64,000 nt of DNA from positions 21,268 through 85,267 of IMG/VR virus record IMGVR_UViG_2875882051_000001, one strand, 5' to 3'. Source of the DNA: a virus. Lineage: Duplodnaviria > Caudoviricetes. Numbering within the stretch: the first letter of the stretch is position 1; every line of letters starts with the position of its first letter. Both the position numbers and the translations under genes were made by a program. The notes under the pieces are model-generated. The model was not told the DNA's origin, did not search any database, and worked only from the letters and a program-made list of their open reading frames with translations. This document shows positions 1 to 21,718 of this stretch, in pieces.

Positions 1-116
1 ATAGTTAAACCCTTCTCAAATAATTTAGCTAATGCACCATTTCCTTTTACAACATCATCTATATCTGCATCCTCTGCTAGGTCCTTTAATAATTCATTTA
101 TTTCATTCTTTTTCAT
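1..116 (-). CDS. N-terminus of probable capsid scaffolding protein (runs off window)
   Basis: Manual translation MKKNEINELLKDLAEDADIDDVV..., RBS GGAAGGAG, position after head-morphogenesis region. Confidence 0.5.
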   Translation of the reverse strand, partial: MKKNEINELLKDLAEDADIDDVVKGNGALAKLFEKGLT

Positions 117-234
117 TGTTAAACTCCTTCCCTATCCAGTTTTATTACTAACCCTGTATAGTTAACTCATTATTTATTTCTAGCCTTTTCACACCATGCT
201 GAGGGCAAAATAAAAAGCCTTAAACTCTTAAGAC

Positions 235-699
235 TTATTTAATACCTTTGTATGCTGTTTGCAATAAGAACCCCAAGTGATTCCATACTTGATTTTTAAT
301 TCTTTCCTTACATATCTCAGCTCCTATTTCCTCATTATAATTTTTAGGATCAACACATGCTGAACTTTCAACAATTGTAAATCCATTTACTAATGTTGCA
401 ACAACAATAGTGATTTTATCTTTCTTAGTAAACACTTCATAATCAACAATAAAGCTATCAACCATTTGTGCCCCTACTGAAACACCGCTAGGTAAGTTGG
501 GATTATCATCAACCTTCAAATATGACTTTTCAAATACATCCTTAGGCGACCATGAAATATAATCATCTGAATACTTAATCATATATCCTTCTGTTTGGGG
601 ATTTTCATTTTCTGGAATCGTCCAACCTTTGAATCTATTATAATCTCCTAAATTCATTTCCTTAGCTTCTATTAATTTTGTTCCAATATACTTATTCAT
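235..699 (-). CDS. Two-domain phage protein: YIGTKLIEA...SWSPKDVFE N-domain plus N4 Gp49/Sf6 gp66-like (Acb4-like) C-domain
   Basis: C-terminal TIVVATLVNGFTIVESSACVDPKNYNEEIG...VWNHLGFLL pattern typical of the Phage_gp49_66 family. Confidence 0.75.
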   Translation of the reverse strand: MNKYIGTKLIEAKEMNLGDYNRFKGWTIPENENPQTEGYMIKYSDDYISWSPKDVFEKSYLKVDDNPNLPSGVSVGAQMVDSFIVDYEVFTKKDKITIVVATLVNGFTIVESSACVDPKNYNEEIGAEICKERIKNQVWNHLGFLLQTAYKGIK

Positions 700-1274
700 T
701 ATTTTTCATTCCTCCCCAATACATTTCTTTCAATTCTATCTTCAACTCTTCTATTCATCCACATAAGAGCTTCTTCAATATGAGTTAAGGCACATGCATT
801 CTCTCTTGATGAAAACGGTCCTGCTTGAAATGCTTTTAATCTATCTCTTACTATTTCCAACAGATCAGTGTCAATTACACCATGTATTGAATCTTTTTCT
901 TTCCTAGAGCCTTTTTGTAATTGAATGACTACTACATCATTAGCAACATCTTTTTCGTTACCATTATTAATAACTATATGGTATTCATGATGCGCACCTC
1001 CTGGGCCTATTTCATCAGCTGCAAAAACTTGATTTAACTTTTCTCTCTTTTGGATTGTACTTAATTCTTTCATATTCTTGATCCCTCCTATACTATTTTC
1101 TTTTTTTATTTCCACTGTTCCTTCTAAGTCTACTTTCGTATCAATCTTCATTGTGACTTCTGCAATACCTTGCTTTTCTGGTTTATAATGTACATTCATA
1201 TCAAGAATTGTATCTACTCTTTTACCATTAAGCTCGACACAACCTTGATTAACTTTAATGTAAGGGAATTCCAT
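699..1274 (-). CDS. tad1: Thoeris anti-defence sponge Tad1 (699-1073) with in-frame 67-aa N-terminal extension
   Basis: [14 protein letters not shown]...GPGGAHHEY...[57 protein letters not shown] closely matches the Clostridium Tad1 sequence as I recall it; internal RBS TAGGAGG before ATG at 1073. Confidence 0.9.
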
Positions 1275-1346
1275 TTATACATTCCTCCTAAAATAGAAAT
1301 AAGCCTTTAACGCTGGCTTTGCGAGATATTGGATCACCTTGCCTTT

Positions 1347-1463
1347 CTAAATTTTAATTTTTCTCTTTAAAAAGCAAAAACACAATCCAAATAAATTAAT
1401 TTGAAACCATGCTTCAGCATACCAAGTCCCATTCTCTGCATATTTTGTAATGTAATGATGCAT
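1347..1463 (-). CDS. Small hypothetical protein (38 aa, MHHYITKYAENGTWYAEAWFQINLFGLCFCFLKRKIKI)
   Basis: Manual translation; start directly abuts the upstream ORF stop. Confidence 0.6.
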   Translation of the reverse strand: MHHYITKYAENGTWYAEAWFQINLFGLCFCFLKRKIKI

Positions 1464-1598
1464 TTATTTCACTTCCTTATTATCCAAAATCACTTTATAT
1501 CCATCATGCTCAATTAGTTCCTTATCACTTATTACCGCAATCACTTCATCATCCTTGGTTATAATAATTTTTTTGAATTCATTTTCTCCAATTTTCAT
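1464..1598 (-). CDS. Small hypothetical protein (44 aa, MKIGENEFKKIIITKDDEVIAVISDKELIEHDGYKVILDNKEVK)
   Basis: Manual translation; RBS GAGGA upstream. Confidence 0.6.
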   Translation of the reverse strand: MKIGENEFKKIIITKDDEVIAVISDKELIEHDGYKVILDNKEVK

Positions 1599-1662
1599 AA
1601 TATATTCCTCATTGATTTTAGGCATAATAAAAGCACCTACCTATTAACTTAAGTAAGTGCTT

Positions 1663-1833
1663 TTAGCCTTCTTTTAATTTCTTTCTCTTTTCTAGGTGTT
1701 TTAAATATTTCTCAAAGCTTTTTTTAGCTTCTTCCGGTGCTTTATCAGTTAATACAAATTGATGTGTTTCTTCATCAATATCCCACCATTCATTATTCTC
1801 TTTCCATATAAACAAATCACCTGGTGCTCTCAT
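1663..1833 (-). CDS. Small protein (56 aa), candidate immunity partner of the MuF toxin domain
   Basis: Manual translation MRAPGDLFIWKENNEWWDIDEETHQFVLTDKAPEEAKKSFEKY...; RBS AAGGAG; directly downstream of MuF. Confidence 0.6.
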   Translation of the reverse strand: MRAPGDLFIWKENNEWWDIDEETHQFVLTDKAPEEAKKSFEKYLKHLEKRKKLKEG

Positions 1834-1846
1834 ATGAATCACTCCT

Positions 1847-3256
1847 TTATTTTAGTTTATCAAGTTTTTCCATAAATTTCAATGAAAATTCTCTTGGTTT
1901 TCTTGAATCATAGAATTCTGCAAATACTTCAGATAAAATTTCAGAACCATCAGAAAAATCACTTGAATATCTTGACAATTTGCTTTCTAATAATTCAAAT
2001 AATTCCTTATTATCTTTAATTCCTAGAATATCTTTTCCAATGGAAATCGTATTAATGTTATAAGTATCGTGTACCACATGACCCATTTCATGTTTTACAA
2101 TAGCTCTATATGACGTATTTGGTGTGAACCATCCATCCTCAGATAATTTTGAATACTCATTTTCCAATAACTCTTTATTCCTAAATGCTTTTCCGTTTAT
2201 ATCAAGGATATGACCTCTAGCTTGTGCAAAATCTTCATCTTCCATATAATAATTAGGTCTTAGTGTAAGCTTATTACTTCCGTTGGATATCTTAGGATAT
2301 TTACTAACGATCTCAGACATATCATCAATAGCTTGTTTAACAAGATCAATGTCTCCATCGAAGTTTTTGAACTCTGATAATGCTATTCCTTTATCCTTTG
2401 CATAATTCTTCAAATCTTTTAATTCTTCTTTTGATATTTTAGCTCCCTTGGCTGGCCATATTGTGCTATTGGTAACTCCACTCATATTATCTTTCTTTTC
2501 ATCATTAGCAATAGTGTTAAATCCCCTGCATAATGGATGTACAACTCCAGGAGCTTTATCTAAATCGAATGGTTTTCCATCTAATGCAGCACATCTAGTA
2601 CAAGTTTTAGCATCAAGTACCTCATTACGAATGACCTTTTTAACTCCAGTTTCCTTACAGAACTTTCTAAATGCTTCATCTTCGCATCTATTTACTTCTG
2701 TTTCAACCAGTCTTCTAACTTCATAAGCATTATTATCGTAAGTATCATGAATTAACTTCTTAATTTGATTCACATTAACCTTACCTTTTAAAAAATCTTG
2801 AGTTTGGCTGTGAAGTAACTCTGCTACAGCCTGTTCATTATCCCAAACTCTACTAGAAAAGTGTTTCCCCTTATAATTGTTATCAATAATCTCTTTAACA
2901 TCTTTATGATTAGCATTATAACTATAAAATTTATAAGTGTTACTAACTGTATTATTCAGAATATCCGTTGTTGTCTTATTTGTAATAGTACCTTGGACTT
3001 TTGCATATCCAGTGATCAAATTTAGAAACTTACTACTTAGTTTATCCTGTTCATCCTTGCTAAGATTCATCACCGTGTCAGCTACTGTATAAGTAAGCAT
3101 TACATTTGCTATTTCTTTTAATAAGTTATCTCTATTTTGTTGCTGCTCCTTATAAACTTCCTTTAGTTGATCATTTGCATTATCATAAAGACCTTCAATG
3201 AAATTAGCTTCATCATCTTTACTATAGTGATCCATACTATTCACCTGCAGCTTCAT
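1847..3256 (-). CDS. Minor capsid/head morphogenesis protein (SPP1 gp7/MuF) with C-terminal zincin-like HExxH domain
   Basis: Follows portal; CxxC...HPLCR MuF motif; C-terminal HEMGH...SRY...SEVFAE. Confidence 0.8.
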   Translation of the reverse strand: MKLQVNSMDHYSKDDEANFIEGLYDNANDQLKEVYKEQQQNRDNLLKEIANVMLTYTVADTVMNLSKDEQDKLSSKFLNLITGYAKVQGTITNKTTTDILNNTVSNTYKFYSYNANHKDVKEIIDNNYKGKHFSSRVWDNEQAVAELLHSQTQDFLKGKVNVNQIKKLIHDTYDNNAYEVRRLVETEVNRCEDEAFRKFCKETGVKKVIRNEVLDAKTCTRCAALDGKPFDLDKAPGVVHPLCRGFNTIANDEKKDNMSGVTNSTIWPAKGAKISKEELKDLKNYAKDKGIALSEFKNFDGDIDLVKQAIDDMSEIVSKYPKISNGSNKLTLRPNYYMEDEDFAQARGHILDINGKAFRNKELLENEYSKLSEDGWFTPNTSYRAIVKHEMGHVVHDTYNINTISIGKDILGIKDNKELFELLESKLSRYSSDFSDGSEILSEVFAEFYDSRKPREFSLKFMEKLDKLK

Positions 3257-4505
3257 CTAAATTAATTTTTGTCTTATTTAATTCAGATTCTTTCTTTATC
3301 TTTTCGATTTCATTTTGAGGATTTTCTATAAATGATAATTGAGCTAAACCAGTTTCAGTAGATAGCTTGTCTCCAAGTTTTTGAATTATATCAGCAGTGC
3401 TGGTATCATCTTGCGGAATATTAGGTGTAAACTTAATTTTAATATCTCTATAATCATAAGTTTTGTTTTGGGTTAGATTTAAGTATATAAAGAGAAATTT
3501 TAATCTACTTTTAATGCAATCAGCTAAAGCTCTTTGATTTAATTTGCACTTTTCTTCTAAAGAAATCAATCTAGATCTTAAAGCAACTCCCGAAAGATTA
3601 CTTTGCATTTTCTCATTATGATTTATATGCGACGTCAGCTGGTACATCTTATCTTCTTGAGTAGAAAGAGTATTTTGAATAAAACTATCATTTATATTCT
3701 TTATTAACCATTCAGCTCTTCCTTTATCCGAAGGGACCTGTATAATTCCTTTCTCCTTCATTTCATCTACATCTTCATCCTCTATCTGAAATCCAAAAAG
3801 ACTTAAATATGCATTCCTAAAATCACTTATTTCATTGCTTATATCTGAAAGGTTAGTCTCATACGCATCTTGCAACCCTTTAATATCTTTATAGATTGTG
3901 TCATCTTCTTTTTCAATACTGACCTGTGCTATTGATACAGGCACTTTACCGAATCCATGAGATTCACCTTCATCATCAGTAAAGCCATTTTTATAGTGAT
4001 ACACCGAAGAATCATCATAAACGTCAATATAAACATTTGAATCGAATCTTTTATGATATATGCGCATAAAAAAAAGTATGTTCCCGAAATCATCTACGTG
4101 AGCATACCCTTCTCTTGGAGTTATTATTTTAGAGCTAAATTGTGCTTCATCATCAGTATAGTATAATTCATATGCAAATCCATAAGTAAGCATTCTTTTC
4201 ATAAGATCACTATCATGTTGTTCACTCCAGTGTTCTAAATAGTAATCTATATCATTGACTATATCTGCATTTCCTGATTTAGAAATATAGGTTACATCAT
4301 TTCCAACTGAATAACTTACTTCTTCCTTAATGAATTTTTTTAGGAAATTTACAGGAGTTTTATTATTACTTCTTTCAGTGACCATTTTATAATTTTTCAT
4401 TGCATCCGAATCACCTTTATAATAACTATACATATTATCATAAAGTGGTTTTTTAGCTTTATAGTAGCTATAAACTTTTTCAAGTAATTGTATATCTATA
4501 TCCAA
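3237..4505 (-). CDS. Portal protein, SPP1 gp6-like
   Basis: Size, position after terminase, motifs NFLKKFI, LQDAYE...D, SGVALR, FTPNIP. Confidence 0.9.
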   Translation of the reverse strand: MDIDIQLLEKVYSYYKAKKPLYDNMYSYYKGDSDAMKNYKMVTERSNNKTPVNFLKKFIKEEVSYSVGNDVTYISKSGNADIVNDIDYYLEHWSEQHDSDLMKRMLTYGFAYELYYTDDEAQFSSKIITPREGYAHVDDFGNILFFMRIYHKRFDSNVYIDVYDDSSVYHYKNGFTDDEGESHGFGKVPVSIAQVSIEKEDDTIYKDIKGLQDAYETNLSDISNEISDFRNAYLSLFGFQIEDEDVDEMKEKGIIQVPSDKGRAEWLIKNINDSFIQNTLSTQEDKMYQLTSHINHNEKMQSNLSGVALRSRLISLEEKCKLNQRALADCIKSRLKFLFIYLNLTQNKTYDYRDIKIKFTPNIPQDDTSTADIIQKLGDKLSTETGLAQLSFIENPQNEIEKIKKESELNKTKINLDEAAGE

Positions 4506-4521
4506 AGTCTCAACTCCTTTC

Positions 4522-6369
4522 TTAGATTCCTAGCTTTCTTCTACTTATAAATGTTGCTATTGGAATAACTTTTATTTCTTTCAAAGCATTTTCGCCCTCT
4601 GAAATCATATCTATAAAATCATCATGCGTAGTGTATTTTTGCCCTTGGAATTCAAGTACCTGTTTTACTGCTGCAGAGCTATCTTCACAATCAGAATTTA
4701 TAATTATCTGTCCATTATTTATTGGATCCATAACAGTGCTTATCTTTTCATCCTTGTTTGTTTTCTGCATTTTATTAATAAATTCAAGGCGTCTACTCTT
4801 TAATTTAGGTTCTTTATCGATCAATTCTTGTATTTTAAGAACATCAGCACCCATGAATGTATTTTTCTCAATAACAACATGAGTAATATCTTCATGTCTT
4901 CTAATAAAATCAATGACCTTTTCGCAATAGTCATTATATCCAAGTCTTTTCATTAGCAAATCCCGAACATAAGTAAAGTCATTTGTCGCTTTACTCATTA
5001 CACCCATAGCGGTATAGTCATTTTTCTTACTTGTGCTTGCTGCTGGATCTATAACTAAAACTGTTTTGATAAATTTGTGGTTTTCTATCTCCTCACTAGT
5101 TCTAGTAGCAACAGATTTAAACCACTTTTCGCCTATAGCTGTAGCATCGTTCATGAGCTCAGACATAAATGCAGCTCTATTTTCCCAATACTTTACCGCT
5201 AAATCATTAAAGCAATTCCATTTCTCAGGCCACCAGGTTTCAAATTGCATTTCCTTTTTATGGTCATCGTAGAATTGCTTTGCTTTCTCTTTTCTTTCAT
5301 CTTTATTTAATTTTTCATCAAAATAAATATCGTGGCATTGCAACCATAAACCGGGTTTGTATTCATCTCCAATGGTTTCTCCATATTCAAAAATATCTTC
5401 AATAGTTTGCCCATCTTGAAGTATTATTGCACGTCTTAAGATGGTATAATAATCTCCATTTCGGCTTAATCTACTCATAAGACAATCAATATGCAATACT
5501 GTTCCAATAGCAATTATTTTAGTAGCCGCTTTAATCTTCTTACCATTTCTATATACTGCTTTATCTCCAACTTCTTCAACTTCCTTAGTCCATTTATTAT
5601 ACTGCTTTTCCCTAGCAGCATCAGTTAAAATGTTCTTTTCATCCTGGAAGTCATCACCAATAAATACAGTCGGTCTAATTCCTCCCCAGTTCGCACCTCT
5701 TACAGATGTTCCTGAACCAACAGTCCTGATGTAAGTTCCATTAGTGAACTCAACCTCGTTTGCATTAACTGTATATCTTTCTCCATTTGACTTTAAGGAT
5801 TTAATATCAATTAATTTACCAAAGCATTTAATGATTTTTTGGTTTTCATTAAACACTTTCTTAATGGAATCAAGGAACTGTGTTGCGTCAGTATCAGTTT
5901 TTGCACCTAATAAAGTAAATAATGATTTTTTATAACAGTGCAGATATACGCTAACAGCTTCATCGAATATAGTTGTCTTTGCATATCCTCTAGGCTCAAT
6001 TATTGCAGCCTTATCTCTTTTATCCTCTACAAATATTTCATTTGCAATATCCCATAATTCATAGTGACCTTTAGATAATGTTCTAGCTGCATTAGGCTTA
6101 TGATCTAAAGGAACGCTTTCATCGTCATTTAACCCTTTAGGTACAAATATATCGCTCATAAAGTACAGGCAGAAAAACTCAATATCTTTTTCACCTAATG
6201 CTTTAGCAAGTTTATTCAAATCCCTACTATTCGCTCTAAGTAGCTTATCTGAAATCTCTTTGTCATAATGTTTGCCGAGGTACTTATTTAACAGATATAC
6301 CTCATATTTAAGCTCTGTATCAAATTTTAAGTTGTCAAAGTATATCATGTTATTCCTCCTTTTGGGCAT
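4522..6369 (-). CDS. terL: Terminase large subunit
   Basis: PRGYAKTT Walker A, GDDFQD, IDPAAS nuclease and HDDFIDM motifs. Confidence 0.9.
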   Translation of the reverse strand: MPKRRNNMIYFDNLKFDTELKYEVYLLNKYLGKHYDKEISDKLLRANSRDLNKLAKALGEKDIEFFCLYFMSDIFVPKGLNDDESVPLDHKPNAARTLSKGHYELWDIANEIFVEDKRDKAAIIEPRGYAKTTIFDEAVSVYLHCYKKSLFTLLGAKTDTDATQFLDSIKKVFNENQKIIKCFGKLIDIKSLKSNGERYTVNANEVEFTNGTYIRTVGSGTSVRGANWGGIRPTVFIGDDFQDEKNILTDAAREKQYNKWTKEVEEVGDKAVYRNGKKIKAATKIIAIGTVLHIDCLMSRLSRNGDYYTILRRAIILQDGQTIEDIFEYGETIGDEYKPGLWLQCHDIYFDEKLNKDERKEKAKQFYDDHKKEMQFETWWPEKWNCFNDLAVKYWENRAAFMSELMNDATAIGEKWFKSVATRTSEEIENHKFIKTVLVIDPAASTSKKNDYTAMGVMSKATNDFTYVRDLLMKRLGYNDYCEKVIDFIRRHEDITHVVIEKNTFMGADVLKIQELIDKEPKLKSRRLEFINKMQKTNKDEKISTVMDPINNGQIIINSDCEDSSAAVKQVLEFQGQKYTTHDDFIDMISEGENALKEIKVIPIATFISRRKLGI

Positions 6370-6395
6370 AATAAAAGAACCCTATTTCTAGAGTT

Positions 6396-7079
6396 CTATA
6401 AATTCATATCATTCGCATATTCCTCTGTCTTGAGTTCTAACCCTATCCATGCTAAAGTTAAATCAATTAAATTTTTTAAATCAGTTATATCTTTGTTTTC
6501 CCACTTTTTAACGTAATGTGTTTCATCATTTCCTAACCAAGTGGCTCCTTTAGCCATTTTTTTAATATTAACATTGTCAATCATTTCAATGCATTTTCCC
6601 AACAAATTTTTTTCTATTTCCTCTTTTTCATTAGGCTTTCTATATTTTAAATAATCTTTAATCAAAAATTCAAGAGCCTTCCTATATCCAATCCCTGCTA
6701 TTTGATCTAAGTTATTATCTTCTGCAGATAATGATTGATTATAAATAATAAGAAACATATTTGATATTTCAGATATTTTTTGATATATCTCAATTGTTTT
6801 TGATTTCTTAGGAAATATTGAAATAAATTCACCTTTATATCCTGCATAATAACTACGATTATAATCTTTTCTATATTTTGCAATAAAAAGTTCTTTGCAA
6901 TCCGGACATTGAAGCAGCACATATAAATGCCCAGCATTTATTTCACCTAACATGTTTGGTGATATTCTCAAATTACATATAGGACATTCAGTAATTTTTT
7001 CTACTTCTAATTTATTACAATAATCTGAATAATCTTTATAGCAATTACTCATATCTTCCATTACATTTATTTCAGCCAT
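6396..7079 (-). CDS. DUF4145-like (HEPN-like) domain protein with N-terminal zinc ribbon; moron
   Basis: CPIC/CPDC; GYRKALEFLIKDY and WLGNDETHY motifs; own TATAAT upstream and terminator hairpin at ~6373-6398. Confidence 0.8.
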   Translation of the reverse strand: MAEINVMEDMSNCYKDYSDYCNKLEVEKITECPICNLRISPNMLGEINAGHLYVLLQCPDCKELFIAKYRKDYNRSYYAGYKGEFISIFPKKSKTIEIYQKISEISNMFLIIYNQSLSAEDNNLDQIAGIGYRKALEFLIKDYLKYRKPNEKEEIEKNLLGKCIEMIDNVNIKKMAKGATWLGNDETHYVKKWENKDITDLKNLIDLTLAWIGLELKTEEYANDMNL

Positions 7080-7137
7080 AATCTCCCACCTTTCACATAA
7101 TATAATTATATAAAAGTTGCTATATTCCTTCTAAAAA

Positions 7138-7509
7138 TTACAATTCACCACCATATTTTTCTTTTAATTCAGCTTTAGTAACTTTTATTTCTTCTTGCAG
7201 TTTATCCATATTAAAAGCAGTTTCATCAACTAATATTGCAAGTTTCTTTAATTCTTCTTTACTCATTCCATCAATTACAATATCTAAAGCTTTCTTGTGC
7301 TGCTCTGACCATTTATTTAACTTGATTACTTTTTCTCTAAGCTCACGATCTGTAACATCAACCAAGTATTTAGTTCCACAGGCCTTACATCTAAAGAATC
7401 TAATTTGTATTCCATTATTTAAATGTTTAGTTTCGATTAAATTCTTAGTTTGTTTAATTTCAGCATTACATTCATCACAATATATTGTATTTTTGCCTTG
7501 CTTTATCAC
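7138..7509 (-). CDS. Hypothetical zinc-finger/coiled-coil protein
   Basis: CDEC...CKAC then coiled coil. Confidence 0.7.
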   Translation of the reverse strand: MIKQGKNTIYCDECNAEIKQTKNLIETKHLNNGIQIRFFRCKACGTKYLVDVTDRELREKVIKLNKWSEQHKKALDIVIDGMSKEELKKLAILVDETAFNMDKLQEEIKVTKAELKEKYGGEL

Positions 7510-7821
7510 TTAATCAACCCCTTTGCTTTATTTTAAGGTTCAAGTTTAAAAATTATAGCAAAATTTTATGGAGCTTGCCGACCGTATTTTTTGATTTTTC
7601 ATTTTAGAAGGTACCCCCTTCCATAGGTTTATGCTATAATATCAATATAATCACGCTATAAATATCGGGAAATAATAATTAATTTTTATTCAATAAAACA
7701 TGTATATTCCCTGCCTTATGCACTGATTATTCACTGATTTTATGCATTTCTTTATTCATAAAACGCGAAATCTATTCTGTGTCAGTAGGCAAGCCATTCT
7801 TTAAAATTCCAGTTTATGCAA

Positions 7822-7853
7822 TTATTTCGCTAAATGATGACTTTGCGAAATAA
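7822..7853. repeat. Imperfect palindrome TTATTTCGCTAAA-N7-TTTGCGAAATAA, candidate tyrosine-recombinase site
   Basis: Arms and spacer seen directly; geometry resembles Xer-type sites. Confidence 0.5.
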
Positions 7854-7878
7854 CTTTGAATATTTCAGCCTTTCGTAA

Positions 7879-8322
7879 TTATTTAGCTTGGGAAATATCT
7901 ATCACATTGTTATCACTTTTAATCTCATTAACTAACTGATCTATATCCACATCGGTATTCTTTTCATTATCATTAGTGCTAGTCTCTATCTTAGTGGTTG
8001 TGTTGCCTAGATTCCTATCGATAATGTATTTATTAGTTTCAAAGAACTTAGGATTGCTCTTATCGCTCATTATCTCAGCCAGATTACTAATAGCTAAGGG
8101 CATTAACCCTAGTATTTGCCTCCTGCTCTCCTCTGTTTGCTGAGAATTTAATTCATCTGTACGTTTCTGAAGCTCAGCCTTGAAATCCTTATTATCCAAC
8201 CAATTATAGATAGTCTTTTCTGATACTCCTACTGTTTTAGCAATGTTAGCATTTGTAAGGTTCCCCATCAACATTAGATTGATTGCTTGTATATGTTTCT
8301 CCGCTATTATCATAAATATCAC
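7879..8322 (-). CDS. terS: Terminase small subunit (HTH type)
   Basis: N-terminal HTH IAKTVGVSEKTIYNW; IIDRNLG...K motif; upstream of terL. Confidence 0.75.
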   Translation of the reverse strand: MIFMIIAEKHIQAINLMLMGNLTNANIAKTVGVSEKTIYNWLDNKDFKAELQKRTDELNSQQTEESRRQILGLMPLAISNLAEIMSDKSNPKFFETNKYIIDRNLGNTTTKIETSTNDNEKNTDVDIDQLVNEIKSDNNVIDISQAK

Positions 8323-8554
8323 CTCGTTTTATCTACTTACATATTTACAGTTTTATTTATACAAATTACATGCTAATATTACATAATTATATGCACCTCA
8401 CGCTTTCATATTTAAACTTAATTAGCTTACTTGATTACTTATTCATTTAAAATCAAATCCTCTTATATGGTCTAATAACCGCATTTAAATAGACACTATT
8501 ATTTACTCACTCAAGGGGTACGGTCACTAGGATATATATATTAATATATATGTA

Positions 8555-9208
8555 CTACTCATCGTACCCCCTGATTAAATTCATCGTGTCAATATAAAGT
8601 TTATTATCTTTGTTAACTTTATACTTCTTAACCTTGTAATAATACTTATTCTCTATGGTTTTAATTATTACGTCCAGTTCTCCTTTAGCTAGCTGCAATT
8701 CAGCAAGAGTTATTTCACTCCGTGTATATTTATCTTGGAGTTTCTTAAATGCATTCACATACGCTTTATTCTTCCAAAATGATTTGTATTCTTCAATCGT
8801 TACTTGAGCCAGTTCTCCTAGCGCTTTATCCAATTTAAAGTAATAATAACCATCCTTTGAAATTATCTTTTTATCCTGGAGCGTATTATCCCACTTAATA
8901 ACAGTGTTTTTATTTATCTTTACCTTGCTGGCTATATCGTCTATTGTGTCGGGTTCTTCGGCTGTTCTTATATTGAAATAATTAATAAAGCAATCAGTTT
9001 TGCTAATATTATAGAGCTTATTAATTATCTGCTTATCTCTGCTTATTCCCAACTCGTATATTGTCTTTTTATTCTCAATGGATTTATCCAGCAATATATA
9101 ACCTCTTTCCAATAACCTTTTTTCTAATGTATTGCGCCTTTCAATTTGCTTTAGAGCATTAAGATTAATATTGAGCAAATCTTTTAGTTCATTCCTGCAA
9201 ACTTTCAT
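8555..9208 (-). CDS. Hypothetical protein, probable DNA-binding
   Basis: 217-aa ORF with HTH-like segment IDDIASKVKINKNTVIKW. Confidence 0.65.
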   Translation of the reverse strand: MKVCRNELKDLLNINLNALKQIERRNTLEKRLLERGYILLDKSIENKKTIYELGISRDKQIINKLYNISKTDCFINYFNIRTAEEPDTIDDIASKVKINKNTVIKWDNTLQDKKIISKDGYYYFKLDKALGELAQVTIEEYKSFWKNKAYVNAFKKLQDKYTRSEITLAELQLAKGELDVIIKTIENKYYYKVKKYKVNKDNKLYIDTMNLIRGYDE

Positions 9209-9387
9209 CTTCTTTTTTCATTATTTTTAAAGCATTCCATTAGGTCTCTATTATTGAATGGATAATAATAAAAGTCCATCTTCTCACATTCTTTTTCGCA
9301 ATCTTTGCATTCATCCGGAGACTTAGCGCATATTATTTTTCCTTCTTTAAATCTAACATTCAATTTAACTTTCTTTCTTTTAGCCAT
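9205..9387 (-). CDS. Hypothetical Cys-containing protein
   Basis: 60-aa ORF, ATGA overlap with next gene. Confidence 0.65.
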   Translation of the reverse strand: MAKRKKVKLNVRFKEGKIICAKSPDECKDCEKECEKMDFYYYPFNNRDLMECFKNNEKRR

Positions 9388-9533
9388 GTTCTAAATCTCC
9401 TTTCGTTGAATCTAAGATCACATTATTTACCACGCAAAAAAGGCACCCAACTTAATGAATGCCTTCTAAAAGGGCTTTAATGAAATTCTTGACAATATTA
9501 TTATATCTCACTTTTCCAGTATTTTTTACAGAC

Positions 9534-9570
9534 TTTCTACTGTTTTCCTTCTGTTTTTCTACTGTTTTTC
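9534..9570 (-). promoter_or_regulatory. Direct repeats (TTCTACTGTTTT, 11/22-bp phasing) upstream of probable late promoter
   Basis: Repeats just after the activator gene; arrangement typical of RinA/ArpU-type activator targets. Confidence 0.55.
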
Positions 9571-9585
9571 TATAATCAATAAATT

Positions 9586-9999
9586 TTAGGGTATATATTT
9601 CTTCATTTTCCTTATTGCCTCATATTCCATTTGCTTGATCCTGGAGTAACTTAAATTTAATTTTTGTTCAACTCTCCAGTATTTCTTGCGTTCTATTAGC
9701 ACAATCTGGATTATTTCCTTTTCTTCATCAGTCAGCATTGTAAGTGCATTGTCAATTCGCCTTAATTCTCTCTTTTTAACTGCCTGTTGTCTATATAATT
9801 CTTCTTTCTTTTCCATTAACGCTTCCGCTTGTTGCTCAACACTAGAAGTTATCTTGTAGGTCTTTCCTGTTCTTTCCTCTGTACCTTGTCCACTTACTCC
9901 TAATATTTCTTCCTCAAGTTCTTGGACTTTTATATCAATCTCTTGTATGTCTGCTTTAAGCTCTTTATATTTCCGTATCCTATATACTGTGTTATCCAT
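9586..9999 (-). CDS. ArpU/RinA-like late transcriptional activator
   Basis: Coiled-coil N-terminus, C-terminal sigma-region-4-like HTH, position at early/late boundary. Confidence 0.75.
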   Translation of the reverse strand: MDNTVYRIRKYKELKADIQEIDIKVQELEEEILGVSGQGTEERTGKTYKITSSVEQQAEALMEKKEELYRQQAVKKRELRRIDNALTMLTDEEKEIIQIVLIERKKYWRVEQKLNLSYSRIKQMEYEAIRKMKKYIP

Positions 10000-10030
10000 T
10001 TACTCACCTAACCTTCAAACTATGTTTCTT

Positions 10031-10732
10031 TTATAGCGCTGATTCTTCCAAAAACAAATCTGTATCTTCTATAAATCCTTTATGAACTAATACATTTCTC
10101 ACTTCATATCTCAGAGTGTTATATATTTCGCATCCTATAAATTCCTTATCTATTGGCCTTATTTGAGTATTAAACTCACTTTGTAGGCCTTTAAGCCTTT
10201 TGTATAATCTATCTGGCTCATATTGTGATCTATAACTAGATGAATCTCTTATATTTATATCAAAATTTTTATCCTCTAAAAAAATGAAGAACTTTATATT
10301 GTATTTATTCAGGGTGGCAAATTCGTATTTTAGCCTGTTATAATCAGTCTTAAGAACCTTTTCCAGATACTTTTCTCCAAGCAACTCGATTATTTCTTTT
10401 TTTATCTCATTGATATTAGTCTTATTATCTTTTAAATTCATTGCCAACTCATCAATACAAAACTTTCTTTCAATCACTATTTCATCAGTGAAATAAATAT
10501 CCCTTGTTTGTCCCTTAAAGCTTCCTATTGGTAACATACATGAATAATCTCCATAGTCAAGTTTTTGTGTCTTAAAAGGCTTTTTCCTCTTATTTAACCA
10601 TTGAATTACATGCTGATTTGCTTGCTCTCTTGTATCTACTAATACAACCATTTTATCCAATAATTCTTTTATTTCTTTTTCTGTAAACTTATATCTCATT
10701 AGCAGCCCTCCTATGCTATTTTCTTTACACAT
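10031..10732 (-). CDS. ERCC4-domain nuclease
   Basis: VDTREQ, LDYGDYS, IERK motifs. Confidence 0.85.
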   Translation of the reverse strand: MCKENSIGGLLMRYKFTEKEIKELLDKMVVLVDTREQANQHVIQWLNKRKKPFKTQKLDYGDYSCMLPIGSFKGQTRDIYFTDEIVIERKFCIDELAMNLKDNKTNINEIKKEIIELLGEKYLEKVLKTDYNRLKYEFATLNKYNIKFFIFLEDKNFDINIRDSSSYRSQYEPDRLYKRLKGLQSEFNTQIRPIDKEFIGCEIYNTLRYEVRNVLVHKGFIEDTDLFLEESAL

Positions 10733-11418
10733 TTATAATAAAATGCTGTTCTTTTACCTTCCCAATCTACATTTATTGTTTCACCATTGTTATAAACTCT
10801 TACTACCTTACCCGTTCCTTTGATTCCTTTGTATTCAATTTCAACAAGATCATCAATTTCAAATTCTGTGATGTTTGTATGCTTTTTTGTAACTTTATCA
10901 GCCAAATCTGTGATTTCTTTAGTCATTTCTGTAACAAAAAGCTCATTTTCGTGATATTTAGGCTTTTGTTCATATTCAATGACCCATCCTTTATAATTTA
11001 TAACAACCGTTTTTTCTCCAGGTATTATGATGTTGGAATCACCTTTACGTTTAATGTATTGTGTCACCTTCATATCATTTAATTTTTTAAGCTGTAGATC
11101 ATTGAGTTCTTTATCTTTATTGACGAATAGTATTTCATCAGCTGGCATTAAACCAACATTTGCGCCTAAATCAAATTCATGCACACCTTGTCCATCAAAA
11201 TACTTTGTCTTATCTTCTAATTCAACAAGTAATGCTCCTGAAACAGTTTTTATGATTCTATTACAGCTCTCTTTATAAAGGTTTATTATCTTCTGGAAGT
11301 GATCTTCCTTCGTCTCTTGTTTATCAACTATAACTTTTTCTTTAGGCTTGATAATAGGTTCTTGAATTGGCATATTAAATAAATCAATTTGCCCTTCTAA
11401 CACAATTATTTTTTTCAA
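10711..11418 (-). CDS. Hypothetical phage protein
   Basis: 235-aa ORF with EGQIDLF N-terminus common in Firmicute phages. Confidence 0.7.
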   Translation of the reverse strand: MKKIIVLEGQIDLFNMPIQEPIIKPKEKVIVDKQETKEDHFQKIINLYKESCNRIIKTVSGALLVELEDKTKYFDGQGVHEFDLGANVGLMPADEILFVNKDKELNDLQLKKLNDMKVTQYIKRKGDSNIIIPGEKTVVINYKGWVIEYEQKPKYHENELFVTEMTKEITDLADKVTKKHTNITEFEIDDLVEIEYKGIKGTGKVVRVYNNGETINVDWEGKRTAFYYKCVKKIA

Positions 11419-11498
11419 ATTATCTCACCTTCTTTTTCACTTGATTTTCATATGATAATGAAGCTTTATAATTATAGTGTTATTTACCATATTATTAG

Positions 11499-12506
11499 TT
11501 ACACAACCAATCTTCTATATTCATTTTTAAGGTTTTCTTGAGATAGTTGCGCATATATTTGAGTTGTACTTGGGGTAGTATGTCCAAGAATGCCCTGCAC
11601 ACCTTCAATTCTCATTCCTGAATTTAATAACCTAGTTGCTTGGGTACGTCTAAATTTATGGCAATGTACCCTTTCACCTACTCCAGCTCTATCCTTTATC
11701 TTTGCTATTATTAATTGTAATGCTCTTACTTTTATATGATTATGTGAACCTCTCTCTGATATAAATAAGTATTCTGATTCTCCTTCTCTTGATTTTAAAT
11801 AGCCCTGCATGTGTAACTTAGCTCTTGTAGAAAAGAAAACTATTCTCTCCTTACTTCCTTTTCCAAATACTTTTATACTTCTCTCCTGCCAATTTATATC
11901 TTTTAATTTGATATTATCTAGTTCCGATATTCTGCACGCAGTACTGTCTAAAAGTTCAAATAGAGCTTTTTCTCTTTCAGTTATACACGCTTCTCTTAAC
12001 CTCTCCAAATTTTCTGGTTGATAAGGTTGTAATATCACACGTGGTACTTTAGTTTGTTTCAATTTAAATGCAGGATTTTTAATTATATATTCTTCTGCTT
12101 GCAACCATCCGAAAAAGCCTTTAAGCATTGTTATATATCCGTTAACTGTGGTAGCTTGTTTTTCTTTTCCCATAAAGGCCAAGAACATTCTCAAATCCAT
12201 AGTAGATATAGTAGAACATGGTTTTGTAAAAAATCGCTCTAATTTATTTAGAAATAATCTATAATTATCTAATGTCTTTTGGCTTAAACCTTCTAACTTT
12301 TTACAAGCTAAATATATAGCTGATTTTTCTTCTATATCGCTTGCCACTAGATCAGTACATTTCGATGAAACTTCATAATCATATAAAGTTTCATCAATTG
12401 TCTTTTTAACCTCTAATTGCAAACTCAAATTTTGTTCTAAAACTGGTAATAACAAAGTTAATTTTCCTAACAATCTTATACTGGCTTCTTCATTTAGGTT
12501 GCTCAT
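11499..12506 (-). CDS. XerD-like tyrosine recombinase (not the att integrase)
   Basis: Intact R-K-HxxR-H-Y: TACRISEL, GKGSKER, HKFRR, LGH, TQIY. Confidence 0.92.
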   Translation of the reverse strand: MSNLNEEASIRLLGKLTLLLPVLEQNLSLQLEVKKTIDETLYDYEVSSKCTDLVASDIEEKSAIYLACKKLEGLSQKTLDNYRLFLNKLERFFTKPCSTISTMDLRMFLAFMGKEKQATTVNGYITMLKGFFGWLQAEEYIIKNPAFKLKQTKVPRVILQPYQPENLERLREACITEREKALFELLDSTACRISELDNIKLKDINWQERSIKVFGKGSKERIVFFSTRAKLHMQGYLKSREGESEYLFISERGSHNHIKVRALQLIIAKIKDRAGVGERVHCHKFRRTQATRLLNSGMRIEGVQGILGHTTPSTTQIYAQLSQENLKNEYRRLVV

Positions 12507-12554
12507 ATTATCAAATCCTTTCTTTAGTTTTTTGTAATCTTAATAAAATCATCT

Positions 12555-12583
12555 GAATACTTGTTTTAAAATTGTACATAATA
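12555..12583 (+). promoter_or_regulatory. SigmaG-type promoter, copy 1 (GAATA-N17-CATAATA)
   Basis: Matches the forespore sigmaG consensus GHATR-N17/18-CATWHTA. Confidence 0.55.
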
Positions 12584-12589
12584 TAATTA

Positions 12590-13170
12590 GTTGTTGATTA
12601 TATTATTATTTATAGAATCCATTATGTGCCCTTTAATTAGGGCATATTTTGCGTTTAATTTTAGCATTGTGAATTAAATTATTTGAATACTTATTTTAAA
12701 ATTGTACATAATATAATTGACATTAGTTATGTTATTGTTTATAGAATCCATTAATATTACTATTTATAGAAATCCATTTTTGACTCCTTAATTGGAGTCT
12801 TTTTATATAAATAATTATAGTTGTTAGAATTATTTGTACTTATCCTTCATATAATGAAAGGAAACCTCTTGATTATTATTTTTTATCTTATAGTTACTCT
12901 CTTTTTGTAGATCTTTATACTTTTGTCCATTCACTTTTGAGCTCCTTAAATTTAAGGAGCTTTTATTATTCTTATCATGAATAATTTCATAAAATACTCA
13001 TAAGCTAAGGATGTCTTCATAATCAGATCAGTACTCCATTTTCAATCCATTTAATGTGGGAATATGATATTTTAATTACGTATTATTTAAGATATATTAA
13101 CGTATAATATAAATACCCCACATATATTAATTATCACATACATATACGCCCCTTTATTGGGGCATTTTTT
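12590..13170 (+). ncRNA. Candidate array of short non-coding transcripts, each ending in a hairpin (~12627, 12782, 12940, 13148)
   Basis: No long ORF; repeated TTTATAGAATCCAT; four hairpins followed by T-rich runs. Confidence 0.4.
12685..12713 (+). promoter_or_regulatory. SigmaG-type promoter, copy 2 (GAATA-N17-CATAATA)
   Basis: Near-identical duplicate 130 bp downstream of copy 1. Confidence 0.55.
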
Positions 13171-13195
13171 GTACTCATTTTCTACAGATTGAACA

Positions 13196-13387
13196 TTACT
13201 TATATATTATTGGTTCATTATCTTTCTTAGGATATTGTTGCAATATAATAGACTTCACATAACTGTAATTTATATGTCTATTTACATATTGCATATGGTC
13301 CACGTTGTTTTTTATAGTATAAGTTGTTTTACTCCCATCATTGCATTCTACAAATAACTTTTTCATAACCTTATTCCTTTTCCTCAT
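13196..13387 (-). CDS. Hypothetical protein
   Basis: ORF track; compact cassette region. Confidence 0.65.
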   Translation of the reverse strand: MRKRNKVMKKLFVECNDGSKTTYTIKNNVDHMQYVNRHINYSYVKSIILQQYPKKDNEPIIYK

Positions 13388-13646
13388 TTTTATTAATTTC
13401 TTCTAGATCTGTACCTTCAAACTCAACTTCTCCACTTTCGTCCTTATCAAATTCAAGTATTTTCACATTGTTATCGCTTAAATATCCCTCAATATCATCT
13501 GGATGCATACCGTCTCTTTCCAAAACATCTAACGCATACTCTACTTCAACATCTGAGTCAGCTTCAACTGTTAAAGTATGTCTGTAAACTACTTTTTCTT
13601 CTAATTCGATTTTAAATTTCATATTTCCCCACCCTTTCAAATTCAA
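13371..13646 (-). CDS. Hypothetical acidic protein
   Basis: ORF track; true start probably MKFKIE. Confidence 0.65.
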   Translation of the reverse strand: MNLKGWGNMKFKIELEEKVVYRHTLTVEADSDVEVEYALDVLERDGMHPDDIEGYLSDNNVKILEFDKDESGEVEFEGTDLEEINKNEEKE

Positions 13647-14268
13647 TTACCCATACCCAAGGATTTTCATGCCACATATATTTGACTTGAGATTTATTTA
13701 GAGTGCTATTCCATAAATCTTCAAAAGCTGATATATATTCACTTGCAGTAAATGAGTCAGTAATTTCAAAATCTAGCTTTATTCCTTCCTTTTTACATTC
13801 ACCTGCTTCAATCATTTTTAATCTTTCAGGATAAATCTTTTTTATTTTTAGAAATATCCTTGCTGCTTCTTTCGGCATAAATAATGACGGCTGCCACTTT
13901 TCTTGATCTGCAAATTTATAGAATTTATTAAATCTCTCTTTTGTAAAAGATATACAATCATTAACCTCACTATCTGCCTTATATTTAAAAGCTAGTGTAT
14001 TAACTCCTCTTGAATGCGCCAACCATGTTTCTCTAACATAAAGTATGTCTCCAATTTCAAACTTGGGTTTGCACCAATTAATAGCACTGTATATTGTTCC
14101 AGCAACTGCATTAGATCTATATCCAAATTTGTAATATTCGCCTTCATGTTCTAGTAGTTCTCTATTCCCAACATTCTTTATAATTCTTCTCGTGGTTGTT
14201 TTTCTTCCTTCAAGAATTGCCTTAACCATATCTGTATTAAATAAAATTGGTTTTTCCAATATTCTCAC
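13612..14268 (-). CDS. ASCH/PUA-like phage protein
   Basis: PILFNTDMVKAILEGRKTTTRR, GDILYVRETW, WQPSLFMPK, NPWVWVIEF. Confidence 0.8.
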   Translation of the reverse strand: MRILEKPILFNTDMVKAILEGRKTTTRRIIKNVGNRELLEHEGEYYKFGYRSNAVAGTIYSAINWCKPKFEIGDILYVRETWLAHSRGVNTLAFKYKADSEVNDCISFTKERFNKFYKFADQEKWQPSLFMPKEAARIFLKIKKIYPERLKMIEAGECKKEGIKLDFEITDSFTASEYISAFEDLWNSTLNKSQVKYMWHENPWVWVIEFERVGKYEI

Positions 14269-14284
14269 CTCAATTTATTATGTT

Positions 14285-14367
14285 GAGGGGAATAATCCCC
14301 TCTTAATTTGCAGTAACCTTAACATTAGCAATTGTAATCCCTGCTGCTAACACTCCTAGTCCTGCAA
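14285..14367 (-). ncRNA. Structured intergenic RNA-like element, homologous to 55946-56035
   Basis: Shared ~60-nt sequence with nested stems TTGCAG/CTGCAA and TTAGCA/TGCTAA plus a downstream hairpin. Confidence 0.5.
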
Positions 14368-14375
14368 GAACTCAC

Positions 14376-14801
14376 TTACCCTCTGTTCTTATTTATATCC
14401 ATGAAATTCATTTGAGGATTTATTAGTGGTTGCACTACATATTTTCCATTTATATCATCCCATACAACTTCTTTATTCTCGTCATAGCAACCTTTTGAAT
14501 TATATTGCTTCTTTAAAGTTGATGTTATCTTGTGTTCAAAAGTAGGTTTTTTATATTCATATTTATCATTTATTATATTCCCGTAATCATCTGTTGCAGG
14601 TATTTCCTTATAAGCATCTCTTATTTTTAAATCCAATTTTAAAGATATTTCCCCACTTGCAAATTCACCATTATATACACTTTTTATAACTCTTTGTATT
14701 TCCTCATTTAAATCAGTTAACATTGCATTAAATACAGGACTATCAATATCTATACTTAATACTCTCTTACTTAAATCCACTAATTCACTTGTTTTACCCA
14801 T
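14376..14801 (-). CDS. Hypothetical phage protein
   Basis: 141-aa ORF. Confidence 0.7.
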   Translation of the reverse strand: MGKTSELVDLSKRVLSIDIDSPVFNAMLTDLNEEIQRVIKSVYNGEFASGEISLKLDLKIRDAYKEIPATDDYGNIINDKYEYKKPTFEHKITSTLKKQYNSKGCYDENKEVVWDDINGKYVVQPLINPQMNFMDINKNRG

Positions 14802-15196
14802 TATCTTATTACCTCCAATTCAAATTCGACTCTTTCTAATTCTTCAGTAAATACTTTCTTAACAATCAATTCTGTGATCTGGCTATCGTCCTTATAGGCA
14901 ATTTTATTTAAACTATCCAAAATAACCTTAGCTACATTATCAATATCAGGTTTCTTCTGTGGACGCTCTATCCCCGCCCTTATCGCTTCTAACCTTTTCT
15001 TTGAATAACTCTTAGGTATTTTGTAGTAAGCTATAATTGTTGCCTTTATAGAACCTTCTAAATACCTTCTATCCTGCTGCTGATAACAAATTCTTACCCA
15101 ATTTTCATAAGTCACTGTATCTCCAGGAGTTGTTGCATGTCCATTAAAAAATCTAGGCCGTCCTTTACCTTTTATTGTTCCTTCAACTACTACCAT
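14801..15196 (-). CDS. rusA: RusA-family Holliday junction resolvase
   Basis: GKGRPRF, KKPDIDNVAKVILDSLN, YKDDSQI. Confidence 0.9.
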   Translation of the reverse strand: MVVVEGTIKGKGRPRFFNGHATTPGDTVTYENWVRICYQQQDRRYLEGSIKATIIAYYKIPKSYSKKRLEAIRAGIERPQKKPDIDNVAKVILDSLNKIAYKDDSQITELIVKKVFTEELERVEFELEVIR

Positions 15197-15207
15197 TTAT
15201 TTCTCCT

Positions 15208-16521
15208 TTACCTTAAACAATCTATATTTGCGATCTTTTGGAGCTTATCCAAGTAATAGAATTTAAGTGTTCCAACTGCTCCATCTCTTTGCTTCGCTAT
15301 TATCCATTCAATAATATTTCTGTCTTCTGTTTCTTTGTTGTAATATTCATCACGATACAAGAACATTATCAAGTCTGCATCTTGTTCAATATTCCCAGAT
15401 TCTCTTAAATCCGCCAATGTTGGTCTCTTATCTGCCCTCTCTTCAACTTTTCTAGATAATTGTGATAATACGATTACTGTTACTTCTAATTCTTTAGCCA
15501 TCATCTTTAATTGTCTTGTAACTTCACCAATATCTGACGATCTATTTCCAGTGTTAGGTATGTCCATTAACGTTAAGTGATCTACAATTACCACATCTAA
15601 ACCATGAGTTTGTTTTACTGCTTTAGTCTTAGCTTTTATAGTTAATGTGTTTTGGTAGCTGCTGCAATCTGTAAATATTCCATTTCTCTTAGATAATTTG
15701 TTAGCTGCCATAAGTATTCTTTCAAACTCTTCTGCATTAAGTTTTCCTGTTTTTAATTTCTGTGCTTCAACATTTGAATTGAAAGCCAATCTCCTATTTC
15801 CCAATGCTGTTTCTACCATTTCCATTTCAAATACAAGCACATTATTACCGTTTTTCGCTAGTCCGTCAGCTATGTTTAAAGCAGTAACTGTTTTTCCCAT
15901 TGATGGACGAGCACCGATTACAAATAAGTCTCCTTTATTCATTCCATTTGTTGCTCTATCAAAGTCATGAAATCCTGTTTTCATGCCTGGAATATCTCCA
16001 CCATTAGCATATCTTTCTTCTATCTTTGATATTGTGGCATTAAGTAACTGCGTATCATTTAGTATTTGGCTTTTGTCTTCTGTTTGGCTTAATTCATTTG
16101 ACATTTTACTAATTGAAACATCTGGTTTAATTTTATCGTCATACAATGCATTCATAGCTGAATTTAATGATTTTATCGCCTTTCTTCTGAAGGACTTATC
16201 TTTTATAATGTCCACGTATTGTTTTACATTTAATTTAAACCCACCTGTCATTAGTTCTGTGAGGTATGAAACCCCTCCGACGTATACTAGACTGTCTTTT
16301 CCTAAAACCTCTATAATGGGCGTTATTCCTATTTCTTTCCCGTCTGCAAATAATGCACACATTGCGTTAAATATTAATTGATGGCTTGATCTATAAAAAT
16401 CATTTGTTTTCAACTCATTTACTGCTTGTACTATTATCTTAGGGTTATAAAATATACCTGATAAGAGTTCTTGTTCAGCTCTTATATTTTGCGGTAGTAT
16501 TTGTAACTGTTCTGTATCCAT
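15208..16521 (-). CDS. dnaB: DnaB-like replicative helicase
   Basis: GARPSMGKT, VIVDHL, LSQLSR, DLRESGNIEQDAD. Confidence 0.95.
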   Translation of the reverse strand: MDTEQLQILPQNIRAEQELLSGIFYNPKIIVQAVNELKTNDFYRSSHQLIFNAMCALFADGKEIGITPIIEVLGKDSLVYVGGVSYLTELMTGGFKLNVKQYVDIIKDKSFRRKAIKSLNSAMNALYDDKIKPDVSISKMSNELSQTEDKSQILNDTQLLNATISKIEERYANGGDIPGMKTGFHDFDRATNGMNKGDLFVIGARPSMGKTVTALNIADGLAKNGNNVLVFEMEMVETALGNRRLAFNSNVEAQKLKTGKLNAEEFERILMAANKLSKRNGIFTDCSSYQNTLTIKAKTKAVKQTHGLDVVIVDHLTLMDIPNTGNRSSDIGEVTRQLKMMAKELEVTVIVLSQLSRKVEERADKRPTLADLRESGNIEQDADLIMFLYRDEYYNKETEDRNIIEWIIAKQRDGAVGTLKFYYLDKLQKIANIDCLR

Positions 16522-16539
16522 CTAATCACCTCTATTTAG

Positions 16540-17334: not shown

Positions 17335-17342
17335 TCAATCAC

Positions 17343-18930: not shown

Positions 18931-19141
18931 TTACATCAGCCTCCTTATTAAAATCTTTAGAGTCAACTTCTCTACCTTCTTTACACATCCAAAAGGAATC
19001 ATATTTATAACTGTCGCATTTTAATCCTTCAAGTTCCTCATTATCTTCTTCATAGTCAAAGCTCTTAAGTTCTATCGCAGGAGCTTTACACATTCCATCC
19101 TTGTAATTAATGCAAGTTTTCCACTGACATCTAACTAACAC
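18920..19141 (-). CDS. Small Cys-rich hypothetical protein
   Basis: C-x4-C-x7-C pattern; RBS GGAGG. Confidence 0.65.
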   Translation of the reverse strand: MLVRCQWKTCINYKDGMCKAPAIELKSFDYEEDNEELEGLKCDSYKYDSFWMCKEGREVDSKDFNKEADVIGK

Positions 19142-19201
19142 TTGAATTCCTCCCTTCTTGTGTTATAATGTTCCTGAGAATATTTATACAATCCATTCGC
19201 G

Positions 19202-19381
19202 CTATCTTGGAATACTTTGGTCGGTTTCCTTGATAGCTTTTTTGTTTTTACTGCCACATTGTCCATAGTCATCAGTTGCAATAATAAATTCAGTAATAAC
19301 AATTTTAGGTTCATCCTTAATGCAGACATAATCACCTTCGCCTATATATGTGCATTCATCACAATCTTCACATTTTTTCAT
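19202..19381 (-). CDS. Small Cys-rich protein (59 aa, MKKCEDCDECTYIGEGDYVC...), missed by the ORF track
   Basis: Manual translation; ATGA overlap with the upstream stop. Confidence 0.65.
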   Translation of the reverse strand: MKKCEDCDECTYIGEGDYVCIKDEPKIVITEFIIATDDYGQCGSKNKKAIKETDQSIPR

Positions 19382-20239: not shown

Positions 20240-20240
20240 A

Positions 20241-21323: not shown

Positions 21324-21439
21324 TTTTATAATTTCCTCACTTCCTTCTATACTTGAATTTAATATTTACTCTTCGCAGAAAATTACTGGATGTAATTGCT
21401 TTGAGTTGTGAGATATGATAAATAAGATTTATTATGTTA

Positions 21440-21679: not shown

Positions 21680-21718
21680 TTAGTTGTTTCCTCCGAATTT
21701 TGCTGCATGATATTCTAT

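Follow-up and report, generated by a model that had tools for sequence, protein, structure and literature searches.

A Tad1 gene joined in frame to a small orphan module in a putative phage accessory cassette

Results

The window, the whole stretch of 64,000 nucleotides that was analysed, carries on its minus strand a single open reading frame of 191 codons. In this frame a short N-terminal module (hereafter the N-module) runs through a five-codon linker into a complete homologue of the sponge protein Tad1 (Table 1). No stop codon separates the two parts. The N-module has no stop codon of its own, the TAG of the Shine–Dalgarno (SD) motif in front of Tad1 is out of frame with it, and the frame continues through this SD and its spacer into Tad1. 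A preliminary description of the locus had reported a continuous frame with its own ribosome-binding site and a second start at 1073, and the single 191-aa ORF with its two TAGGAGG motifs bears this out. The spacing between the internal SD and the Tad1 ATG matches the spacing seen in relatives. Since both SD/ATG pairs are present, long and short isoforms are expected, as had been suggested earlier, and, judging from these start signals, proteins of 191 and 124 aa are probably both made. The 124-aa form fits the usual size of a standalone Tad1 (~115–145 aa), which the 191-aa ORF exceeds.

Table 1. Positions of the fused reading frame, its start signals and the neighbouring cassette features in the window
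Feature	Position	Strand	Details or basis
Long ORF: N-module, linker and Tad1	699..1274, stop included	-	191 aa, ATG start; ORF listing
N-module, codons 1–62; beta-rich orphan family with six known members	1089..1274	-	homologues P0002, P0003, P0009, P0010
Linker, codons 63–67; translated former Tad1 5'UTR (SD and spacer)	1074..1088	-	junction compared with L089
Internal SD TAGGAGG for the Tad1 start	1084..1090	-	10 nt before ATG at 1073
Canonical Tad1, short form, 124 aa, ATG at 1073	699..1073, stop included	-	homology and shared start Met
A7 run within N-module codons 57–59	1101..1107	-	sequence
N-module SD TAGGAGG, last part of the conserved leader	1284..1290	-	9 nt before ATG at 1274
Conserved leader heading the accessory cassette	1275..1338	-	comparison with Clostridium-type prophages
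Downstream two-domain gene, 154 aa: N-domain and Acb4-family (PF13876) domain	235..699	-	Pfam, PHROGs
Cassette 3' boundary: conserved hairpin, then T-run	205..241	-	common to relatives

The identity of residues 68–191, already named as Tad1 in the preliminary description, was confirmed by several comparisons. Residues 67/68–191 cover the whole of cbTad1 without gaps (PDB 7uav, E = 1.8e-51, and likewise 8kbe–8kbh; chain residues 1–125), and the Tad1 part is ~75% identical to this crystallised protein. It also matches the Pfam family PF24729 (Acb2/Tad1 hairpin domain; 34.2 bits against a cut-off of 27) and, end to end, phrog_2428 (E = 8.5e-33). All 13 published ligand and hexamer residues of cbTad1 are kept. 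The gcADPR pocket, as listed by Leavitt et al. (10.1101/2022.05.03.490397), is identical at 11/11 positions with an offset of +67 (H29, G55, R57, R78, F82, F87, N92, R109, R113, G120 and N122), and residues R90 and T97 of the cbTad1 hexamer/cyclic-trinucleotide site (Li et al., PMC10680739) have their counterparts in R157 and T164. In an AlphaFold model built with 40 homologues, the Tad1 part (pLDDT 70–85) contains strands at residues 69–71, 81–85, 97–102 and 114–119 and two long helices at 135–151 and 157–186; this predicted four-stranded sheet with two long helices corresponds to the published cbTad1 topology. Because the PDB, Pfam and PHROG matches, the pocket residues and the modelled topology all agree, the assignment as Tad1 is secure at the level of sequence comparison, and the protein is a canonical Tad1, apparently functional, that has start signals of its own.

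The start of this Tad1 is conserved as well: 59/59 unique Tad1 homologue proteins share the conserved N-terminus and have their first residue at the position that corresponds to Met68. cbTad1 itself, from a Clostridium botulinum prophage (PDB 7UAV/7UAW, 8KBE–8KBH), has its start Met and its leader in common with these relatives. Unlike in cbTad1 and all other Tad1 proteins examined, however, the Tad1 frame described here is open for 67 codons further upstream and is joined to a second module. In the same structural comparisons, phiKZ gp184 (PDB 8y6v chain I, 230 aa, phrog_22140), a capsid-structure protein, weakly matches residues 116–185 (E = 8e-5), and a Tad1-type hairpin domain therefore also seems to occur at the C-terminus of longer, virion-associated proteins.

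The ATG of the next gene overlaps the Tad1 stop codon (TAATG). Residues 75–149 of its 154-aa product match PF13876 (91.3 bits against a cut-off of 27, E = 5.8e-26), the Acb4 family, whose members have been described as anti-CBASS sponges (PMC11722364). Compared with SPO1 Acb4 (PDB 9E4W), direct similarity is weak (E = 0.25), and the neighbour has an additional N-domain of 70 aa, which shows no similarity to Tad2-like proteins or to PDB entries. The two-domain architecture of 154–156 aa nevertheless recurs, both in phrog_9467, which is matched over its full length, and in the related loci L001, L003, L005 and L089. In L005 (IMGVR_UViG_3300047321_000238, a 248-kb contig), a Tad1 gene followed by an Acb4-like gene (2793–3842; 75% nucleotide identity over 896 nt) sits between the anaerobic ribonucleotide reductase gene NrdD and the gene for the activase of NrdD. 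This placement shows that the two sponge genes travel together, as one unit, from one phage backbone to another, unrelated one. Another arrangement, with two Thoeris sponges in tandem, is seen in L009 and L011: Tad1 is immediately preceded by a Tad2-like gene (C-terminus ...EDWVFAE) whose TAG stop falls inside the Tad1 SD.

We then asked whether the open frame is genuine. The exact 191-aa product, encoded by 100% identical DNA, also occurs in GCA_013407255.1 and in the Logan assembly of SRR10541603, although the three assemblies may not represent independent strains. The critical site is the A7 run near the end of the N-module. If this run were one A shorter or longer, a TAG would end the frame immediately ahead of the Tad1 ATG. 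In relatives, the TAG or TAA of the SD often serves as the stop of the gene that precedes Tad1, as would be the case if two genes had been joined here by a sequencing or assembly artefact or by a very recent one-nucleotide slip. Such an origin is highly improbable, given the agreement of the three assemblies, the dense packing of ORFs elsewhere in the window, where nothing points to widespread frameshifts, and the finding that in two further loci, L085 and L086, the frame stays the same across the A7 site, in L085 with a synonymous AAA>AAG substitution rather than a change in length. Because the DNA is identical in three assemblies and L085 carries a synonymous change in the A-run, the fusion frame is, on sequence grounds, authentic and not a sequencing artefact. 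The preliminary description had allowed that the upstream segment might always be a separate gene, the join then being due to loss of the stop in recent times or to an error of sequencing. A separate small gene is indeed its usual form (P0003, P0009 and P0010), but recent stop loss and sequencing error are all but ruled out here.

The same A_AAA_AAA heptamer lies in X_XXY_YYZ phase, and a shift in either direction leads to a stop after no more than 2–4 codons, so programmed ribosomal or transcriptional slippage could in principle make an N-module-only product beside the fusion. We regard this as scarcely credible. Seven A residues are short for efficient slippage, and a terminator scan and a fold analysis in which a stimulatory structure was looked for found none. 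Moreover, the heptamer is not a conserved slippery site, since L085 reads AAA AAG and the synonymous G breaks the run.

The first 62 residues constitute a real, selected protein module, as judged from the substitutions among its homologues. A HMMER search of 1.8 billion representatives identified two true homologues, P0003 (61 aa) and P0002 (137 aa), each 55–60% identical to the N-module over residues 1–58. Three other matches (P0001, P0004 and P0005) were set aside as low-complexity repeat proteins that matched by composition. Two closer copies of 67 aa each, P0009 from Clostridium beijerinckii (CP107022) and P0010 from Clostridium sp. YIM B02569, were found within the 90% cluster of the 191-aa protein. 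These 90%-identical copies and a GC content of ~30% suggest that the host is a Clostridium of the C. beijerinckii type. The family thus recovered amounts to six proteins among billions, to which further copies may have to be added that clustering conceals, as it had concealed P0009 and P0010 behind a Tad1 representative, or that are near-identical records missing from the sequences searched. Comparison of the N-module with the two distant copies showed 35 and 28 third-position changes, as against 15–16 at first and 8–9 at second positions. The pN/pS ratio is 0.17–0.18 between the N-module in the window and P0009/P0010, and 0.03 between P0009 and P0010 (8 synonymous changes, 1 non-synonymous). 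Because the homologues show this coding-type substitution pattern and low pN/pS, the upstream frame is not open by chance.

Searches for further relatives of the N-module gave little. There was no match in Pfam (E up to 10), and PHROGs returned weak matches to unannotated families alone. Nothing was found by tblastn against phages, by pattern scans of IMG/VR, or in GTDB genome contigs and JGI metagenome contigs; word-based protein searches likewise returned nothing, and a profile search recovered P0003 alone. No relatives were found for the C-terminal half of P0002, and a relationship of this half to a 53-aa ORF of the window was rejected, as the two show no similarity.

The upstream segment had been called beta-rich, and structure prediction with nucleotide ligands had been proposed for it. 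Modelled by AlphaFold without ligands, the N-module is predicted to form five short strands, which agrees with the first point, but at low confidence (pLDDT 59.6). A fold search with this low-confidence model gave a best Z of 3.0, and ESM Atlas contained nothing above 0.85. In the model of the full-length protein, the N-part, for which the alignment is shallow, is unstructured with pLDDT below 50, and this model carries no information on contacts between the domains. Altogether, the N-module shows no detectable similarity to any sponge family in Pfam or PHROGs or to a solved fold.

To see how widespread the join is, we examined the upstream flanks of Tad1 relatives. Among the best 80 of 127 IMG/VR relatives, an in-frame stop lies at most 39 codons upstream in 80/80, most start at the equivalent of Met68, and none has an N-module in its flanks. 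A search of 5.8 billion protein clusters restricted to residues 1–70 returned no fused homologue, and the exact junction pattern gave nothing in three collections. The fused ORF was found in one lineage only, and at the other N-module loci (L083–L086) the module is not fused to Tad1. The proposal that the segment be sought on its own or joined to other sponges therefore had a divided outcome: the 61-aa P0003 stands alone, but fusion to Tad1 is confined to a single lineage.

The origin of the join can be followed in the boundaries of the cassette. A leader of ~65 nt that ends in the SD, with TTTTAGGAGGAAT as its terminal sequence, heads the cassette whichever gene comes first, be it the N-module, Tad1 or the Acb4-like gene. 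The leader in the window is 94–97% identical to those of L003 (2471–2533) and L004, and it is also present in L006, L027, L028, L036, L040, L041 (the locus of cbTad1 itself) and L089 (650–725). It may be a promoter, a regulatory site or a recombination boundary; a structured RNA was considered and rejected, the leader having no Rfam match and a fold z-score of -0.3. At the other end, the hairpin and T-run that close the cassette are common to L003 (3397–3460), L006, L027, L028, L085 (4202–4236) and L086, and the terminator scan did not call the copy in the window. Gene order between these boundaries varies among relatives. Tad1 precedes the Acb4-like gene in the window, L005, L040 and L089; the order is Acb4-like gene and then Tad1 in L003, L028 and phage vB_CpeS-1181, and the genes are also swapped in L001.

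The closest Tad1, P0008, belongs to the same 90% cluster as the Tad1 described here and is encoded in L089, where the leader is followed by Tad1 and the Acb4-like gene, without an N-module. Of the 20 nt that precede the start codon of Tad1 in the window, 17 are identical to the leader-SD segment that lies directly upstream of Tad1 in L089. This identity at the junction, together with the shared leader, indicates that the N-module is flanked on either side by a copy of the SD segment and that linker codons 63–67 are former 5'UTR. The genes for P0009 and P0010 are equally informative. After codon 62 they contain five more codons, a stop and the hairpin, 50 nt in all that match the 3' end of an L003-type Tad1 gene without a difference; in L085 and L086 the hairpin comes directly after the five codons of the 67-aa gene that stem from Tad1. 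The 67-aa forms therefore arose by deletion from an arrangement of N-module and Tad1, with the loss of nearly all of Tad1. It follows that the adjacency of the two modules is older than this genome and existed with another, L003-type Tad1 allele, and that purifying selection still acts on the N-module when Tad1 is gone. The locus shows how such a cassette is rebuilt: between leader and hairpin, repeated SD segments are the sites at which genes are exchanged, added or removed. The products of this rebuilding are a read-through chimera, as in the 191-aa frame, or chimeric tails, as in the 67-aa forms with the last five codons of Tad1.

In 5/5 contexts, the N-module occupies the slot just upstream of the scaffold gene, with at most sponge genes and, in L084, an 18-aa ORF in between. 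It stands alone before the scaffold gene in L083 (P0003), and it is what remains after the deletion of Tad1 in L085 and L086. In L084 the 137-aa form (P0002) is followed by the 18-aa ORF and then by a Tad2-like PF11195 gene; in the window it is followed by Tad1 and then by the Acb4-family gene. Thoeris sponge genes thus adjoin the N-module in three of four independent contexts (the window, the inferred parent of L085/L086, and L084). In L083, L085 and L086 no sponge gene lies beside it, yet the N-module persists.

This constant slot, and the retention of the module at three loci that lack a sponge gene, are what a head-module accessory or morphogenetic protein would show, one with no link to defence and only incidentally joined to Tad1. 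We consider such a role distinctly unlikely, because a family as rare as this one, absent from closely related heads (L003, L089 and phage vB_CpeS-1181), is not expected of a structural or assembly component. The association with sponge genes makes the N-module a plausible anti-defence candidate, by analogy with its neighbours, and we tentatively entertain the broader possibility that it is a small accessory or anti-defence protein. The earlier suggestion of a candidate new anti-defence domain thus holds in so far as the module is real, selected and found beside Thoeris sponges in three of four contexts, but there is no sign of a selected, recurrent fusion.

Discussion

We lean towards the view that the long chain arose through cassette shuffling and is tolerated, with independent modules and canonical Tad1 still made, and that it does not represent a selected bifunctional design. 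The locus would be an accessory, presumably counter-defence, cassette situated between the head-morphogenesis and scaffold genes of a Clostridium-type prophage. Recombination at the repeated SD segments would have placed an autonomous module of ~60 aa between the leader and Tad1. As the module came without a stop, the frame would now read the former SD and spacer of Tad1 as a linker and then the complete Tad1. Tad1 would have kept its native SD, spacing and ATG, so that the ordinary 124-aa protein could still be made, with the 191-aa chain produced alongside it. By analogy with characterised Tad1, the 124-aa protein would form hexamers that sequester gcADPR and cyclic oligonucleotides, thereby blocking Thoeris and some CBASS systems. 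The two parts are likely to act independently, and the N-module does not seem to need Tad1, since purifying selection on it persists after the deletion of Tad1. The varying gene order of the cassette, and L089 in which the leader is joined straight to Tad1, are in keeping with shuffling. Against it, one may argue that a young functional fusion would look alike at birth, its linker also being drawn from intergenic DNA. The adjacency, which the parent of L085/L086 probably already had, predates a single genome and may have been kept, and published sponge fusions show that phages do make use of such joins.

The preliminary description had related the fusion to a tendency of phage sponges to fuse to other anti-defence domains, and for this there is published precedent. 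Tad2 is fused to Acb4 in Pasteurella phage Pm86, and the PF21825 domain ('Sequestin') is joined to Tad2 or to Acb4; such fusions have been found repeatedly, in tens of genomes, and each of their halves is a validated sponge (10.1101/2025.07.12.664507). The present frame resembles them in that a known sponge and a second small phage domain share one frame and the partner also occurs standalone. It differs from them in that it is found in one lineage, its candidate partner is unrelated to theirs, and the sponge half keeps its own start.

These fusions bear on a second reading, in which the 191-aa chain is a functional bifunctional protein: the N-module would be a new anti-defence domain, either a sponge or an inhibitor, a Tad1 hexamer would display six N-modules, and a single particle would neutralise two pathways, in the manner of Tad2-Acb4 fusions. 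That sponge fusions have led to new sponge families (10.1101/2025.07.12.664507) speaks in its favour, as do the continuous frame in three assemblies, the purifying selection on the N-module and its position beside Tad1 (here and in the L085/L086 parent) or beside a Tad2-like gene (L084). Crystals of cbTad1 have been obtained with 13 additional residues at the N-terminus (8kbe), which indicates that an N-terminal extension is at least tolerated. We nevertheless judge a bifunctional protein to be rather unlikely: there is a single fused lineage, Tad1 retains a full SD and ATG, the linker is unaltered 5'UTR sequence, and the N-module, which has no detectable similarity to sponge families or solved folds, survives and is still selected once Tad1 is lost. 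A selected, recurrent architecture, in particular, is contradicted by the confinement to one lineage, by a linker that is the old SD and spacer, and by the absence of the extension from 80 other Tad1 loci. Thus, a selected bifunctional sponge is not demonstrated by these comparisons, in which the fusion shows no sign of recurrence.

A more far-reaching version, which we consider unlikely, is that the N-module founds a rare counter-defence family, so that the Tad1 hexamer would bear a second anti-defence activity as the first Tad1-based fusion sponge, with the short isoform tuning the stoichiometry. If the N-module proved active, the locus would provide both a new anti-defence family and the first Tad1 fusion; new anti-defence families have been discovered before through domains fused to known sponges. 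Should the long chain, on the other hand, lack a function of its own, the lesson is one of annotation, in that a 191-aa gene call masks a canonical Tad1 of 124 aa and clustering concealed standalone copies of the N-module in a Tad1 cluster.

Returning to the tolerated product of cassette shuffling as the preferred reading, the proposed cassette is set in a larger arrangement that merits brief description. A head-morphogenesis protein of 469 aa (MuF/SPP1 gp7-like), whose C-terminal region carries an HExxH-type motif, is encoded at 1847..3256 on the minus strand, and small ORFs of 59, 53 and 38 aa lie between this gene and the cassette. The 85-kb 'provirus' record from which the window derives seems to contain two different prophages in tandem (window positions 1..24300 and 24500..64000), with one integrase-like gene apiece (23098..24270 and 62843..64000, both on the plus strand).
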